DNA of 64,000 nt from Candidatus Micrarchaeota archaeon. GTDB taxonomy: Archaea; Micrarchaeota; Micrarchaeia; Anstonellales; Anstonellaceae. The translations under genes and the position numbers were made by a program. The stretch is taken from assembly GCA_026413805.1 (NCBI GenBank), contig JAOAKE010000002.1:3599-67598 (forward strand). The letters are read 5' to 3'. The notes under the pieces were generated by a model. The model had not been told where the DNA came from, ran no database searches, and saw only the letters and a list, made by a program, of their open reading frames with translations. Below, piece by piece: positions 3,087 through 62,539 of the stretch (positions are counted from its first letter, which is position 1; each line of letters starts with the position of its first letter).

Positions 3087-6000
3087 ACATTATCCTTTCT
3101 ATCTCTTTTATTAGATTATCTGGGTCAACCTCAAACTCCATCCTTCTTTCCTCTATTGCCTTTGTGATGTAGGCCAGGGCCTCACCTGGCTTTTCAAAAC
3201 TGCATGCCTTTTTGAAGAAGCCCTCTCCGAACACACCATCTACCTTGGCCTCCAAAAGAGCATAGTCTCCGCTGAAATACGCCTCTCTAAATTCCTTCTC
3301 AGCATTCGCAGCCTTAACCATCCATATAGCTGCCTCTGAACCTATTTGGTGTTGCGGCGGTTTTCCTTCTTCAACAAAAGCCTTGACGTCCATCATCACA
3401 TCCCCTATCCACTTTGTCGGAGCATCAGCTACTGCAAGAGGGACTCCCAAGACTCGGTCAACAGTCTGGCGGCTGTCCTTGTTATAGTAAGTCCGTTCAG
3501 TTGGCATTGCGCGGATTATTTCTGCCATGGTTTCAACAAAAGGATCATTGAAGCCTATCCTTGCTTCCCCTACTACGAACTTTTTGGTCAATGGCTTCGC
3601 CCACGGGACCTCTTCGGCATCCCTGGTCCCAAGACAATCACTGACGTAATAAGAAACCTCAAAGTGGGCTGCTCGCCTCAGTATGTTTATATTATATGTG
3701 AAAGAGTGGTCGCTGCCATTTATGTATAGATTCCCATTGTTTTCAGTTACGCAGAATGGGTGGTCCCCTCTAACTTTGCGCAGGTGGGGTATAAGCTCCT
3801 TGTATTCGGCACTCTGGACATTAGTGCAAACAACAGAGTTTCTCTCAACCTGTTTCTTCAAATCATATGCAAAGAGCATTTGCGGGAGCATAATATTCTG
3901 GATATTTGAAAGGAGATGGCCCATGTCTCCAGTCGTTTTTGCATTTTTGAGAACATTCTTTAAGATAATAGAGATAAGCGCAAGGTCGCCAGTTATTCTA
4001 CTTGGAGCAAGGAGGTCGGCAGCGAGCCCTGCGTATTCTTCTCTCAGGGGCGCCATGTTCTTTTCGCTTTTCGTTATTATTGAAGAAGCTTCAAGCAAGT
4101 CTCTTTCCATCTCATCAATTTTCTTCATCTTTTCTTCGGTCTCAAATTTGTTTAGGACTTTTCTCATGTAGCTGCAGATACTTTTTATATATCCATCCAT
4201 GGCCTCTTTGATGCTGGCAGGGTCGCTTTTCCCCATTGCCTCTTCCAATTTCTGCCTGGCAGAATTCATCTCCCAAGTCATCTCCTCCGAGAAGTAGTCT
4301 TTCTGCAGCTCTACAACAGGCCGAGTCTGGAACCTTTTAGAATACTGCGCTACTGACCGCATCAGCGAGAGCCTGGCAATGAGAGCTCCATCGTGTTTTT
4401 CTTTAGTTTGGCCAACCAATTCTTTTTCAATATTCTTTTCAATTAGCTTAATCGCCTCTTTTAGCTCGAGATAGGCCAATCCCTTTGCCTTGAGCCTTTC
4501 ATAAATTGTAAAGGGCACTTCTATGGGCAGCGCCTTATTCTTAAGAAATTCTGCTGCAAATGTTGTCCCATTATCCAGGTCAAATCTCGCTATCTCTTCT
4601 ATATATGGGTAATAGTAGTCAAGGGCCGTTCGCCTTTCTGCTATTTTTTTCGCAATTGCATTAGTTATCCATTCAACTGCGATTAGCTCTGGTCTTGATG
4701 TCAATATGAGCTCGTCCAACCTTTTTCCGCCATCCACATTGCACAGCCGCAGTATCAGCTTGTTTTTAGTTGGGAAAGTGGACCAAATTTCGTTTAGAGC
4801 ATCCTCCCCAATATTCGGGTTTTCCTTAGCAATGCTCAACTCCGTCTTGGCCACTTCCATCTTCAATCTCCACCCGACATCGCGCCCAGAGCGGATAGAG
4901 CGGATTTCCATCAAGTCAGATTGGGTAAATGGGTAGCCCCCCTCAGCAAGTTTCCTTATCAGCCTTAGCAGATGTGGCTCTTTTTTTGCCGCTTCAAAAA
5001 GCTTCTTTTTTAGCCCCACATCCACCCAATCTCTAACTTCATGGCCACTAAGAGTTAGCATCCCTTCCAATTCAAAATAAGTTTTCTTGTTTCCGCCCAT
5101 CCATTCATCAAGGAGGTTTAGGAATCGTTTGCGCTTGCCAGTCAACTCCAAAAGTTCATCAGGAGTCTTTGTGGAAATTTGGGGAAGGAACAGCACTAAT
5201 TCCTCAATCGTCATCTTGCCAAGGAGGTCTACGCTTCGTAGGCACCTTGACTTTATCTCTTCAAAAGGGGTGCTAGGGAAAGCTTTCAGATACAGCTGTA
5301 CAAGTTCTTTGGCGATCATTCCCGCTATGCTATTTGAGTGCTTAGAGAGGGCAGCAACAACCCCCTCGTTCCCAAGTATGTCTAGGATTTCAATTACCCG
5401 GCCATCTTCTAGGAAAGAGAAGCAGACTTCATCCACAAGGCTAACAAGGCTTAGGTTATTTTTGTTCTTTTCAAAAACGCCCTTTGCTAGTCTTGCTATC
5501 TCTTGGTTGCGCCCCAAGGCTATCCTTTCTACTGTTTCTGCAGCATACTCCCAGTCCTCTTTGATTCTGGGCCTGCTATCAGGTGCTTCAACGATTTCAG
5601 GGCGTCTTTCTTTTATTGGTTGTGCGCTTGAAATGATCGATTCGTAACCTCTTTTTATCATTTCGCTTTTTATATGGTCTAAAACTTGCGGGGAGGACTT
5701 CTCAAGGGCGGCATAGTAAAGCTCTCTTAGGAACTTCTCTCTGCTCTCTTTTGACATTTCCTCAGCACCCTTTATCAGTTTTCCTATTTCTTCTACTAAG
5801 GCCGGTTCCTCACCTCGCTTTGAAGACTCTTCTAGCCGATTCAAGAAGAAATCAAAAAACGATTTCATCATGACTTGTGCGCCTTTTTCATCCATCGCTT
5901 TGGCGTACTTTTCCTGCGCAGGAGAAAGCCTTGGCTTTCCAGTTACTTCGCCCGGCTTGATTTTTAGGCCGGTTACTCCCTTTGAAACAATCCGAGGCAG

Positions 6001-47295: not shown

Positions 47296-47500
47296 TGGGA
47301 GGCGAGTGAGCCGGGATCGCATAACCTGGTAGTGCGCATGCCTGGAGTGTTTTTCCCGATAGCATGTGGTCGCAAGGCCGTATGGGTTCCGGCAGGTGCC
47401 CCTGAGTTTGTTGTTCTTGGGGCGTGTGCCGCCCAAAAAAGCTCAGGCGGGGAAAACGCCTGCCACAGGGCTGAAAGTCCCATTCCCGGCGCTTCCCTTT
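47296..47500 (+). ncRNA. candidate structured ncRNA (~200 nt) between cbf5 and rps13; possibly a reduced RNase P RNA (alternatively SRP RNA)
   Basis: The terminal helix GGGAGGCG(47297-304)/CGCUUCCC(47490-97) extends to CCGGGA(47311-16)/UCCCGG(47484-89). GNRA-like hairpin CAGGCG-GGGAAAA-CGCCUG. GCAAGGCCGUAUGGGUUCC resembles the RNase P J11/12 motif AGCAAGGCCAAAUAGGGGUUC. CCGGGAUCGCAUA is reminiscent of CR-I (GUCCGGGCUCCAUA). ACAG precedes the 3' strand. It is GC-rich and has no ORF. Confidence 0.35.
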
Positions 47501-49996: not shown

Positions 49997-50120
49997 GTGG
50001 GGGTGGCAGAGCCAGGTCAAATGCGCCAGCTTGAGGGGCTGGTGCCTTAGGGCTTCGAGGGTTCAAAAAAAATCCGCCCTTGTCTGGTGCGGGTTTGGAG
50101 AACAAATCCCTTCCCCCACA
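49997..50120 (+). tRNA. tRNA-Leu(GAG) with a ~39-nt non-canonical intron in the T-loop (between positions 56/57)
   Basis: Acceptor GTGGGGG/CCCCCAC, then discriminator A. D-arm GCA-GAGCCAGGTCAAA-TGC. Anticodon arm CCAGC-TTGAGGG-GCTGG. Long variable arm. The T-stem GAGGG-TTC is interrupted by AAAAAAAATCCGCCCTTGTCTGGTGCGGGTTTGGAGAAC before AAAT-CCCTT. Confidence 0.75.
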
Positions 50121-50141
50121 CTTAACCGCTCGGTGTTGTTT

Positions 50142-51412: not shown

Positions 51413-51610
51413 ATGTTCTTTCCAATAAGATGCTTCACATGCGGGGCAGTGATAGGGCACCAGTGGGAAGAATACCAAAAGCAGGTTAAAGAGGGCAAAA
51501 GCCCTGCAGAGGTGCTGGATTCATTGGAGATTGAGCGTTACTGCTGCCGCAGGATGTTTCTTTCGCACGTAGAAGTGATGGACAAGGTGATGCGCTACAG
51601 GAAATTTTAG
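51413..51610 (+). CDS. rpoN: RNA polymerase subunit N (Rpb10 homolog)
   Basis: Zn-binding motif PIRCFTCG...CCRRM. Confidence 0.85.
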   Translation: MFFPIRCFTCGAVIGHQWEEYQKQVKEGKSPAEVLDSLEIERYCCRRMFLSHVEVMDKVMRYRKF

Positions 51611-51632
51611 GAGGATATTGGCTTGCGGTATT

Positions 51633-51770
51633 GGGGCCATGGGGTAACCTGGCTATCCTTCCGGCTTGGGGTGCCGGCGATCCGAGTGAGGTTGAAGTGG
51701 CCTTCGGGAATTCAACTCTTTGCAAGGTGGCAAGAATCCACCTGCAAAAGGACAAATCTCGGTGGCCCCA
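51633..51770 (+). tRNA. tRNA-Pro(GGG)-like gene with a ~65-nt insertion in the T-arm and no canonical TTC half (intron-containing tRNA or pseudogene)
   Basis: Acceptor GGGGCCA/TGGCCCC plus A, then a T-rich tract. D-arm GGGT-AACCTGGCT-ATCC. Anticodon arm CCGGC-TTGGGGT-GCCGG (GGG, G37). T-stem CCGAG...CTCGG flanks TGAGGTTGAAGTGGCCTTCGGGAATTCAACTCTTTGCAAGGTGGCAAGAATCCACCTGCAAAAGGAC before AAAT. The region between rpoN and rps2 often carries tRNA-Pro in archaea. Confidence 0.4.
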
Positions 51771-51845
51771 TTTTATTTTAACGAAAGGGAAATTTCGAGA
51801 GTGGCGTCAACAAGTGCCTGCGAAATCCCGGACAGAGGTTGTATC

Positions 51846-52604
51846 ATGAGCGAGAGTTTCTTGATAAAGCAGGAGGCATACCTTGAAGCAGGGGTGCATA
51901 TCGGCACAAAGCTCAAAGTAATTGACATGAGCCAATTCATCTACCGAATGCGAAATGACGGCCTGTATATACTTGACCTGCGCAAGATAGATGAGCGGAT
52001 AAGGCTTGCAGGAAAGCTTCTTTCTCAATATGCCCCAAACGAAATCCTCGTTGTTGCCTCGCGCACCTACTCTGGCAATGCCGCTTCGGTTTTTTCCCAG
52101 CAGACAGGCATCAAGATTTTTCAGGGGAGGTTTATCCCAGGCATTTTCACAAACGTCTCACGCTCAGATTTCATGGAGCCCAAGCTGCTTCTAATCTGCG
52201 ACCCAAAAGGCGAGCGGCAGGCCGCCATTGAAGCAGGAAAAATGGGCATCCCCACAATAGGGCTTTGCGACACCGACAACTCAACTTCATTTATAGACTG
52301 GGTAGTGCCCTGCAACAACAAAGGGAGGCGCTCACTTGCCCTTATTTTCTACCTTCTAACCCGCGAGTATCTAATGGGAAGGGGCAGGATTTCTTCATAT
52401 GACGAGTTTAGCGTGCCTCTTTCTGCATTTGAGGCAGAGCCGCAGATGCAGGAAAGCCCTGCGCAGGAAAAAGAGGGAGCTGCCGAAGAAGGCGCCCCTG
52501 CGCAGCAGCCAAGCGTTCCTCAACAGGAAGACCTACCAGATAAAGCAGCAGAACAGGAGGCTGGCACTAAAAAGGAGAAAAAGGGCCGAAAAAAAGAAGA
52601 ATAG
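51846..52604 (+). CDS. rps2: ribosomal protein S2 with acidic/Lys-rich C-terminal extension
   Basis: S2 family (LEAGVHIGTKLKV...). Start at MSESFLIK (the listed ORF extends upstream over the RNA element). Confidence 0.88.
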   Translation: MSESFLIKQEAYLEAGVHIGTKLKVIDMSQFIYRMRNDGLYILDLRKIDERIRLAGKLLSQYAPNEILVVASRTYSGNAASVFSQQTGIKIFQGRFIPGIFTNVSRSDFMEPKLLLICDPKGERQAAIEAGKMGIPTIGLCDTDNSTSFIDWVVPCNNKGRRSLALIFYLLTREYLMGRGRISSYDEFSVPLSAFEAEPQMQESPAQEKEGAAEEGAPAQQPSVPQQEDLPDKAAEQEAGTKKEKKGRKKEE

Positions 52605-52605
52605 T

Positions 52606-53811
52606 CTAATCAGGGAACGCCGCATAGCAGTTCCTTGCGTCATCACTGGCTTGGCTTATAAATTTGCAAATCTCCTTGTCATAAGCCACTATGGCTGCCC
52701 GGTAATAGCACTTGTCTTTCCAAGCAGTGTCCGACACCTTTCCGCAGTCGTCTGCAACAGGCCCTTCTTCTACATGCAGGATGCTGTTTGCATAGCACTC
52801 CGTCCTTTGCGAGCCTGTCTCAAGCCCGTTGCAAAGAGAAGGCATCCTGTTAGCCATTGCAGCAGCGTAGTAGCATCCTGCCTTGAGAAGGCTGATTTTT
52901 ATCTTGGTGCAAACTGAAACATCTGCTGTCTCTTTTGCAAACTCTGAGTAACACCAGTTCCTGTCTGTGCCGCTTCCCACAGCCATCTCGGGTTCTACCT
53001 TTTCGCAGAACCTTTCATCCTTTCTTTCAGCTGCAAAATGCAAGTAACACCTGTTTCGGTAGTCGCTGCCAGCAGTGGCAAGGTCGCAGCCTGATGGGTC
53101 GCCCAGCCTCTTTGAGGCAAGCTCCAAGCAATAGTCTTGCACAGCCGCAAAGCTTGCAAGCTTGCACTCCAAAAAGTCCCTTTTCACCACTGCCCTGCAC
53201 GCATGCCTTTCAGCAGGCGTGCTTATTTTCTCACAGGCACTTGTGTCGCTTTTGTTTTTTGCATATTCATAATAGCACCAGTCGCTTGAGCAATACGAGT
53301 AATCCTCCTTTTCCAATGCGATGCACAAGCCCCTTTTTTCCAAGTCAAGCAAAAGCATGCACTCTGGCAGCACGTTCTTGAGGCAGACCAGCCTTTTGTC
53401 ATAGTCTGCAATGAGGTTGCATATCTCTTCTGACTTTTCCCTTCTTGCATTTTCAGTCAGGCATTCTACCCTTAATTCAGGGTTGCTTATCTTCCTGCAC
53501 ACCTCCAGGCTTTTGTTTGCAAAAAGCGAATAGCACCAGTCAATCTTCTCCACCGAATAGATATTTTTGCACAGTTCAACGTCCCCCCTTTCGCGCGCAA
53601 GGTTGTAGAAGCACTCATCGCGCTGGAGAACGTTGCCTTCTTTGCACGGGGAAAGAGCAGTCTCGTTCTTTTCAGAGCCATTCCTGCTAGCATTTTCTGC
53701 AACCTCTTCCCCCACAATAGGAGCCGGTTTTTTTTCCGTGCAGCCTGCAATAAGGATTAACAGGAAAACTGCTGCTGCCATTGCAAAGGCTAGCCATCGT
53801 GCCGTGCCCAT
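52606..53811 (-). CDS. secreted Cys-rich repeat lipoprotein (putative), ~400 aa
   Basis: Signal plus lipobox-like MGTARWLAFAMAAAVFLLILIAGC. At least 6 copies of a ~35-aa module [DN]xCY..[FY]A....D..C.KI are present. The longer start at 54036 would overlap a tRNA on the other strand. Confidence 0.5.
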   Translation of the reverse strand: MGTARWLAFAMAAAVFLLILIAGCTEKKPAPIVGEEVAENASRNGSEKNETALSPCKEGNVLQRDECFYNLARERGDVELCKNIYSVEKIDWCYSLFANKSLEVCRKISNPELRVECLTENARREKSEEICNLIADYDKRLVCLKNVLPECMLLLDLEKRGLCIALEKEDYSYCSSDWCYYEYAKNKSDTSACEKISTPAERHACRAVVKRDFLECKLASFAAVQDYCLELASKRLGDPSGCDLATAGSDYRNRCYLHFAAERKDERFCEKVEPEMAVGSGTDRNWCYSEFAKETADVSVCTKIKISLLKAGCYYAAAMANRMPSLCNGLETGSQRTECYANSILHVEEGPVADDCGKVSDTAWKDKCYYRAAIVAYDKEICKFISQASDDARNCYAAFPD

Positions 53812-53874
53812 TTTATGCACCACTGCCCTTTCGAATGCAGCATTTTTAATGATATTCGCCAAAACTATCCTTTT

Positions 53875-53995
53875 GCGGAGATGGCAGAGCCTGGTCAAAT
53901 GCGCGAGGCTTAGGACCTCGTGCCTTAGCGGCTGCGGGGGTTCTGGCTTTTTTGGCATAGCCCAAAATTGCCGCCTATAAATCCTCCTCTCCGCA
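53875..53995 (+). tRNA. tRNA-Leu(UAG) with a 35-nt intron in the T-loop (56/57)
   Basis: Acceptor GCGGAGA/TCTCCGC plus A, then a T-tract. D-arm GCA-GAGCCTGGTCAAA-TGC. Anticodon arm CGAGG-CTTAGGA-CCTCG. Long variable arm. GGGGG-TTC, then TGGCTTTTTTGGCATAGCCCAAAATTGCCGCCTAT, then AAAT-CCTCC. Confidence 0.72.
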
Positions 53996-62229: not shown

Positions 62230-62420
62230 GAATAAAACGCCGAGGAGGAGATCTTGCGCGAAAGCGCGAGAGATTTGGAGCGGAAACGCCGCTCCAAACC
62301 GACGAGGGCATTTTAAAAATAAAGCGCCGAGGAGGAGATTTGTTCATGCGCCCTCCATGTTCTGTTTGGGAGGAAGCAGGGAAACCCTCTTTCAGAAAAG
62401 CAGAGGGGTTTTCCTATTGA
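62230..62420 (+). other. structured intergenic region with a duplicated AATAAA(A/G)CGCCGAGGAGGAGAT cassette, GNRA hairpins and two possible SD-led mini-ORFs (21 and 26 codons)
   Basis: Cassette copies at ~62231-62251 and ~62319-62339. Hairpins GCGC-GAAA-GCGC and GGAGCGG-AAACG-CCGCTCC. An imperfect inverted repeat GGGAAACCCTCT...AGAGGGGTTTTCC. GGGA-GGAAGCAG is reminiscent of the SRP RNA helix-8 motif. Confidence 0.3.
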
Positions 62421-62539
62421 ACTCCTAAGCCCCGAAGGGCACCAGATTGCCTTCCCATATAGAGGCTCAAGTCTGGCGCATTACCAGGTTCTGCCACCTC
62501 GGCATGTTAAAGAAATAGCCTGAATAGAATTTAAAGCAA

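Follow-up and report, generated by a model that had tools for sequence, protein, structure and literature searches.

Can a tRNA gene whose T-stem strands lie 71 nt apart still give rise to a working tRNA? The question is raised by the spacer between rpoN and rps2 in a 64-kb stretch of archaeal DNA (64,000 nt of contig JAOAKE010000002.1, hereafter the window), whose host is a Micrarchaeota archaeon, an Anstonellaceae-like member of DPANN. The spacer (51611..51845; coordinates refer to the plus strand unless stated otherwise) contains a 138-nt element, 51633..51770, in which the arms of a tRNA-Pro(GGG) can be read directly from the sequence: an acceptor stem GGGGCCA/TGGCCCC, a D-stem GGGT/ATCC, an anticodon stem CCGGC/GCCGG closing the loop TTGGGGT with anticodon GGG and G37, and a T-stem CCGAG/CTCGG, whose two strands enclose the long insert. 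The discriminator base is A and is followed by TTTTATTTT; CCA is not encoded. An earlier note, made from the sequence alone, had described this element and quoted two hairpins from its T-arm insert, all of which are present; it held that no canonical TTC half of the T-loop could be assembled, and took the element for either a tRNA with an unusual intron or a decaying one.

The element escapes standard detection, since neither of the common approaches calls it. ARAGORN reported no tRNA gene on the full window, and Rfam gave no match in the window at the gathering threshold; relaxing the threshold to E<=10 on the spacer returned only chance matches to miRNA and riboswitch families. The analysis below argues that 51633..51770 is very probably a functional tRNA-Pro(GGG) gene whose T-arm is interrupted by two protein-spliced bulge-helix-bulge (BHB) introns.

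Exons, introns and the spliced tRNA

The 138 nt divide into three exons and two introns. Exon 1 (51633..51686) comprises the 5′ strand of the acceptor stem, the D-arm, the anticodon arm, the variable loop and the T-stem 5′ strand CCGAG, ending at position 53; it was delimited by a hand parse, by the ARAGORN cloverleaf of the spliced product and by alignment with the intron-less genes of two related loci (L008, 1764..1837; L012, 3873..3945; L numbers denote loci retrieved from relatives). Intron 1 (51687..51710), 24 nt long and located at position 53/54, has a strict hBHBh′ motif. It is followed by a micro-exon of 5 nt, TTCAA (51711..51715), which supplies T-loop positions 54-58, and by intron 2 (51716..51755), 40 nt long, at position 58/59 and with a relaxed BHB. 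Exon 3 (51756..51770) consists of AT (positions 59-60), CTCGG, TGGCCCC and the discriminator A. All exons are colinear on one strand within 138 nt, which rules out a split or permuted tRNA gene.

Deletion of both introns in silico leaves 74 nt that read CCGAG-TTCAAAT-CTCGG across the T-arm, and ARAGORN draws this product as a tRNA-Pro(ggg) with a canonical cloverleaf, in which the four stems are intact and G18/G19, U33, G37 and U54-U55-C56 are retained. The spliced product matches the intron-less genes of L008, L012 and L037 almost base for base, the differences in stems being compensatory. The TTC half that was thought to be missing is thus assembled from TTCAA (51711..51715) and AT (51756..51757), and a BHB-compatible fold that yields TTCAAAT exists, an outcome that the earlier note had itself counted against its reading. 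Of its two options, the unusual intron is borne out in kind, with two BHB introns in place of one, and the decaying tRNA is not.

Splice sites and their evolution in related loci

The BHB geometry used here consists, on each strand from 5′ to 3′, of an outer helix, a 4-nt strand of the central helix and a 3-nt bulge that is cut after its second nucleotide. In intron 1, the central helix is formed by U48-C49-C50-G51 (TCCG) paired with CGGG and is flanked by the bulges AG|T and AA|T; the outer helix has 2 bp and the inner helix, GAGGTTG/TGGCCTT, has 7 bp. A strict hBHBh′ scan of the T-arm returned 51687..51710 together with two chance matches that do not restore a tRNA, and the strict scan selects the equivalent interval in eight relatives (L002, L003, L004, L005, L007, L009, L015 and L016).

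The relatives were collected by an Rps2 search of species-representative genomes, which gave 16 loci, and from metagenome contigs, which gave 25 more. The labels of the 16 species-representative loci are nearly all those of Micrarchaeota, Micrarchaeia or Anstonellaceae metagenome-assembled genomes (MAGs). Nearly all retrieved loci have a tRNA-Pro(GGG) gene upstream of rps2, and its intron content varies: at this same locus in about 30 related Micrarchaeota contigs, the gene carries from zero to three introns. It is uninterrupted in L012 and L037, and also in L008, where it lies about 2 kb upstream of rps2. About 20 distinct sequences have the 53/54 intron only (for example L002, L004, L005, L007, L009, L015, L016, L019-L032 and L041). 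The combination of 53/54 and 58/59 introns found in the window recurs in L001/L017 and L003, with the same TTCAA micro-exon between the introns. Other layouts comprise a lone 37/38 intron of about 200 nt (L011, L035, L036), introns at 37/38 and 59/60 (L010), in the D-loop and at 58/59 (L040), and in the D-loop, at 37/38 and at 53/54 (L034). Every relative that has only the 53/54 intron carries TTCAAATCTCG directly 3′ of it, and TTCAA is therefore exon sequence.

To assess covariation in intron 1, we aligned 21 distinct 53/54 introns in a fixed register whose only anchors were the junctions that the mature sequence implies; the set includes L003, which also has a 58/59 intron, the others having the 53/54 intron only, and L034 was left out. 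The central helix is 96% paired across these sequences, with the C49:G pair present as CG in 10, UA in 6 and UG in 4, and double changes occur at all four of the four inner-helix pairs. None of 500 shuffles reached the observed covariation score. When the partner strand was slid by 1-3 columns as a control, pairing fell from 84% to 23-60%. Beyond the splice-site helices, the intron sequences show no conservation among relatives.

The central helix of intron 2 pairs G53-U54-U55-C56 (GTTC) with GGAC, between the bulges AA|C and AA|A; it is bordered by an outer helix of 2 bp, and the intron folds into the inner hairpin TTTGCA-A-GGTGG/CCACC-TGCAAA. Of all junction pairs within +/-3 nt, 58/59 alone provides four central pairs, and its use yields TTCAAAT. 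Introns of the 58/59 type that end in GRACAA|AT are found in a tRNA-Leu and a tRNA-Ser(UGA) gene of the window and in L001, and that of the L003 tRNA-Pro ends in GAATAG|AT. Alignment of the window's intron 2 with its counterparts in L001 and L003 shows moderate similarity, so they may share an origin.

Several observations at these loci stand apart from the assignment of the window introns. L034, L040 and L013 are more distant Micrarchaeota whose tRNA genes here are even more fragmented, and L013 (3350..3550) holds a putative multi-intron tRNA at this locus. Directly after its tRNA-Pro, L015 contains 3.2 tandem copies of a 104-nt unit (3506..3840), each with an intron-like, GC-rich hairpin followed by the tRNA 3′ piece ATCTCGGTGGCCCCA as its end. 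They may stem from duplication, from repeated integration or from recombination at the 58/59 site. Several loci carry, upstream of the real gene, a second promoter-proximal copy together with the first ~7-9 nt of the tRNA (GGGGCCA/GGGGTCA). This duplicated start is seen in L001 (~3680..3765), L017, L019, L024 and L007/L025/L026 (for example, GGGGCCATT.. and GGGGTCATT..), and leads into a short, minihelix-like hairpin that ends in GGCCC (L019, L024) or GCCCC (L001/L017, L007/L025/L026). It is absent from the window.

A number of results weigh against a functional two-intron gene, and most of them concern intron 2. Its BHB is relaxed, with one U:A pair and a bulged C standing between the bulge and the inner hairpin. 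Its central helix has three of the four pairs in the unspliced precursor, G53:C forming only without intron 1. Its homologues amount to three tRNA-Pro examples, in which the changes are one-sided (GGAC, GAAC, GAAT). Minimum-free-energy folding of the precursor returned neither the cloverleaf nor the BHBs; because the mature tRNA sequence does not give a cloverleaf under such folding either, it is uninformative for the precursor and the half-spliced forms. Finally, a tblastn search with one M. jannaschii EndA query found no splicing endonuclease in the window, which is a fraction of the genome, or in the fetched loci, and neither an endonuclease nor a ligase gene was found in the window.

The failure of ARAGORN and Rfam to call the element and the departure of intron 2 from a strict BHB could also be explained by a decaying pseudogene, in which an insertion of about 64 nt would have destroyed the T-loop and left no working tRNA. 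However, once the two segments bounded by BHBs are taken out, the cloverleaf is perfect and its T-loop canonical, and every stem is intact and matches the intron-less orthologues. A pseudogene would also fit poorly with the retention of the 53/54 intron in 21 distinct relatives, with compensatory changes in its splice-site helix, with the conservation of the locus and its intron motifs across about 30 relatives, and with the putative oligo-T terminator conserved in most of them. Two introns laid out in this way have been documented for the tRNA-Pro(GGG) of ARMAN-2 (Candidatus Micrarchaeum acidiphilum; PMC3239211). Moreover, introns split each of the four tRNA genes found in the window, so intron disruption is the norm for this genome. 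We consider decay very improbable.

A single long intron, spliced to leave a non-canonical T-loop such as TGCAAAT or GACAAAT, draws its support from a trial in which every single interval was removed in turn and ARAGORN rerun: 24 different deletions, of about 58-64 nt, were accepted as tRNA-Pro(ggg). This very tolerance makes ARAGORN, which is lenient on the T-loop, unsuited to locating the junctions, and these were then placed by an explicit test of BHB geometry and by comparison with relatives. U54-U55-C56 is lost in every single-deletion product, no tRNA-restoring single interval in the T-arm passes the BHB test, and the relatives show TTCAA as an exon right after the 53/54 intron. One long intron is thus hardly credible. 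That the inserts carry another functional RNA, such as a C/D-box guide RNA of the kind carried by the haloarchaeal tRNA-Trp intron, or are remnants of a mobile element is suggested by the long, stable 11-bp hairpin of intron 2 and by the L015 tandem 104-nt units, which hint at recombination at the tRNA-Pro gene, but is extremely improbable given that neither intron contains a C box (RUGAUGA) or D box (CUGA) when read through, that sequence conservation among relatives stops at the splice-site helices, and that tRNA sequence is nowhere directly repeated in the window and no integrase lies close by.

Comparison with known systems and proposed processing

The closest described case is the pre-tRNA-Pro(GGG) of ARMAN-2, which has T-loop introns at 53/54 and 59/60 (Fujishima et al. 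2011, NAR 39:9695, PMC3239211, Fig. 1C). In that organism 56% of tRNA genes are disrupted, both BHBs of the tRNA-Pro(GGG) introns are called strict, and BHB motifs of both the strict and the relaxed kind are cleaved in vitro by the three-unit epsilon2 endonuclease (PMC3239211). The window gene shares with it the phylum, the isoacceptor and two adjacent T-arm BHB introns, the first at 53/54, and both tRNA sets are rich in disruptions. It differs in that intron 2 lies at 58/59, one nucleotide upstream of 59/60, so that the micro-exon measures 5 nt instead of 6, and in that the second BHB is relaxed in the window and strict in ARMAN-2, whose gene we compared by its published description. The 59/60 position of ARMAN-2 is shared by the relative L010. 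The lineages also differ, the nearest relatives of the window being Anstonellaceae MAGs; the window gene is the orthologue, in another Micrarchaeota family, of the published ARMAN-2 case.

In Thermoproteales and other Crenarchaeota, tRNA genes carry up to three non-canonical BHB introns, which are cut by an (alpha-beta)2 endonuclease (PMC3239211, PMC4033280). Common to these and the window are protein-spliced introns at non-canonical positions that include the T-arm, relaxed BHBs and a failure of standard finders to detect the genes, whereas the phylum and the endonuclease differ, the enzyme described in Micrarchaeota being the three-unit epsilon2 form, which has a broad specificity. Relative to the canonical archaeal intron at 37/38, with its strict hBHBh′ motif, the 3-4-3 geometry with cleavage after the second bulge nucleotide is the same, and intron 1 conforms to it exactly; here, however, it is the T-stem or T-loop, and not the anticodon loop, that supplies the central helix with its exon-side strand. 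Among eukaryotes, ectopic and multiple tRNA introns are known from the nuclear genome of the red alga Cyanidioschyzon merolae, where the splicing machinery differs (PMC3728597, PMC9602550).

Possible expression signals flank the gene. An A/T-rich box, GGAAATTTTA (51600..51609), read from the sequence about 25-33 nt upstream of the tRNA start, is a possible archaeal TATA box of tRNA-Pro. The oligo-T tract (51771..51779) directly after the discriminator base is a probable archaeal transcription terminator and may double as the A/T box of the rps2 promoter. In most related loci, CCCCA is followed by a T-rich, TTT-containing stretch (for example, CCCCATTTTATTGT and CCCCATTTATC); the exceptions are few and include L012 (CCCCATGTTG) and L037 (CCCCATATGTT).

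Archaeal tRNA splicing proceeds by endonuclease cleavage in the bulges and RtcB-type ligation, and CCA is added post-transcriptionally. From this established pathway we infer how the tRNA-Pro gene might be expressed. A 138-nt precursor would be transcribed, probably from the A/T box lying some 28 nt upstream, and would end at the oligo-T tract, after which the tRNA splicing endonuclease would cut within the 3-nt bulges. At the 53/54 site, the 3′ end of intron 1, CGGG, would mimic the 3′ strand of the T-stem and pair with U48-C49-C50-G51; at the 58/59 site, GGAC at the 3′ end of intron 2 would pair with G53-U54-U55-C56. An RtcB-type RNA ligase would join exon 1, the micro-exon UUCAA and exon 3, and addition of CCA would complete the 74-nt tRNA, with a T-loop UUCAAAU, that reads CCC/CCU.

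The pairing scheme suggests that intron 1 is excised before intron 2, because the fourth central pair of intron 2 needs G53 beside U54. Before splicing, CGGGA at the 3′ end of intron 1 has an alternative partner in the T-stem 3′ strand (UCUCG), with which it can form 6 consecutive pairs. It is conceivable, if rather unlikely, that a conformational relay imposes a fixed order on the removal of the two T-arm introns. In such a relay, CGGGA would form the BHB of intron 1 when paired with the T-stem 5′ strand and the outer helix of the BHB of intron 2 when paired with the 3′ strand, and the G53:C pair would become available only once intron 1 had been excised. If the relay is real, the precursor would serve as a natural substrate for two successive steps, the 5-nt micro-exon passing from one BHB to the next.

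Genomic setting and meaning for the lineage

Disruption is not confined to tRNA-Pro. Three more tRNA genes of the window are split, and ARAGORN and the default filters of Rfam miss all four. The gene for tRNA-Leu(GAG) (49997..50121), between rpoD and rpl18e, has a 39-nt intron at 58/59 (50067..50105) that ends in GAACAA|AT; it scores 37.6 bits for the Rfam tRNA model with filters relaxed, and its counterparts in relatives lack that intron. On the minus strand, tRNA-Ser(UGA) (62325..62503) contains two introns, of 18 nt at 37/38 and of 77 nt at 58/59, the latter likewise ending in GAACAA|AT; only when the filters are relaxed does it reach 30 bits for Rfam tRNA, and its spliced product of 84 nt forms a canonical class II cloverleaf. 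The fourth, a probable tRNA-Ser(GGA) (47310..47491) between cbf5 and rps13, has an intron of 13 nt at 37/38 and, with a provisional junction, one of 85 nt in the T-loop. ARAGORN accepts spliced forms of it, and a search for a strict BHB at the T-loop intron found none; the T-loop is most likely TTCAAGT. A 'tRNA-Leu(tag)' at 53799..53959, proposed by a whole-window scan that combined BHB splicing with ARAGORN, was rejected as spurious, as it lies inside a minus-strand open reading frame (ORF) and its junction falls 5 nt into the acceptor stem.

The tRNA-Pro spacer, which is the entire interval between rpoN and rps2, is set in the archaeal gene block cbf5-rps13-rps4-rps11-rpoD-rpl18e-rpl13-rps9-rpoN-rps2. 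Upstream, rpoN (RNA polymerase subunit N/Rpo10; 51413..51610) was named by the characteristic motif of its translation (MFFPIRCFTCG...CCRRMF), and it precedes tRNA-Pro in related loci too. Downstream, rps2 (ribosomal protein uS2; 51846..52604) is identified by its ORF and by tblastn relatives on Micrarchaeota contigs with 56-90% identity; a lookup of the exact Rps2 sequence matched no entry in the assembly collection. In other archaea, such as Haloarcula and Methanococcus, rpoK and eno are found at this spot, and a literature search for rpoN-tRNA-rpoK-eno-rps2 synteny gave nothing usable. The earlier note had remarked on the absence of both genes. Indeed, tblastn with RpoK and enolase queries gave no significant match to either in the window, and the best, weak RpoK match is spurious, as it falls inside EF-2. 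The absence is not peculiar to this locus, however: of about 35 related Micrarchaeota loci examined, about 28 have rps2 directly after tRNA-Pro, and the lack of rpoK and eno here is thus typical of the lineage.

Between the oligo-T tract and rps2, the leader of rps2 contains an RNA structure (51785..51831) composed of an outer helix GGGA..TTTCG/CGAAA..TCCC, an internal loop AGAGU/UG and a hairpin GGCG..TGCC. It is present in about 25 Micrarchaeota loci and absent from more distant ones, and its common features are a two-part outer helix, an invariant asymmetric loop (5′ A-R-A-G-U, 3′ U-G), a hairpin GGCG...CGCC and a variable tip. RNAalifold reports compensatory changes in 8 of 11 pairs. A fixed-register count, which leans slightly toward structure as its 3′ anchor was picked partly by best pairing, gave 84% pairing where shuffles gave 70%; none of 500 shuffles attained the observed value, and 9 of 11 pairs showed double changes. 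A covariance model of the leader finds one match per locus, always just upstream of rps2, including two loci outside its training, and no other match in the window. Readings of the loop as a K-turn or a BHB were discarded, since AGAGU/UG fits neither geometry. The structure has no Rfam match and a literature search gave no description of it, so that it is apparently undescribed so far; as the simplest hypothesis, it may be an autoregulatory RNA of uS2.

The two-intron layout of tRNA-Pro is ordinary for the lineage, and known biology is unchanged, the ARMAN-2 architecture having been published in 2011 (PMC3239211). What the locus adds is of two kinds. First, standard tools under-count tRNAs here, and genomes of this lineage can be expected to look tRNA-poor, or to be without an apparent decoder of CCC/CCU, unless BHB-aware tools are used. 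Second, a single orthologous locus passes from no intron to introns at 37/38, at 53/54, at 53/54 and 58/59, at 37/38 and 59/60, and in the D-loop, at 37/38 and at 53/54, and so offers a compact set for following the gain and loss of non-canonical introns in Micrarchaeota.

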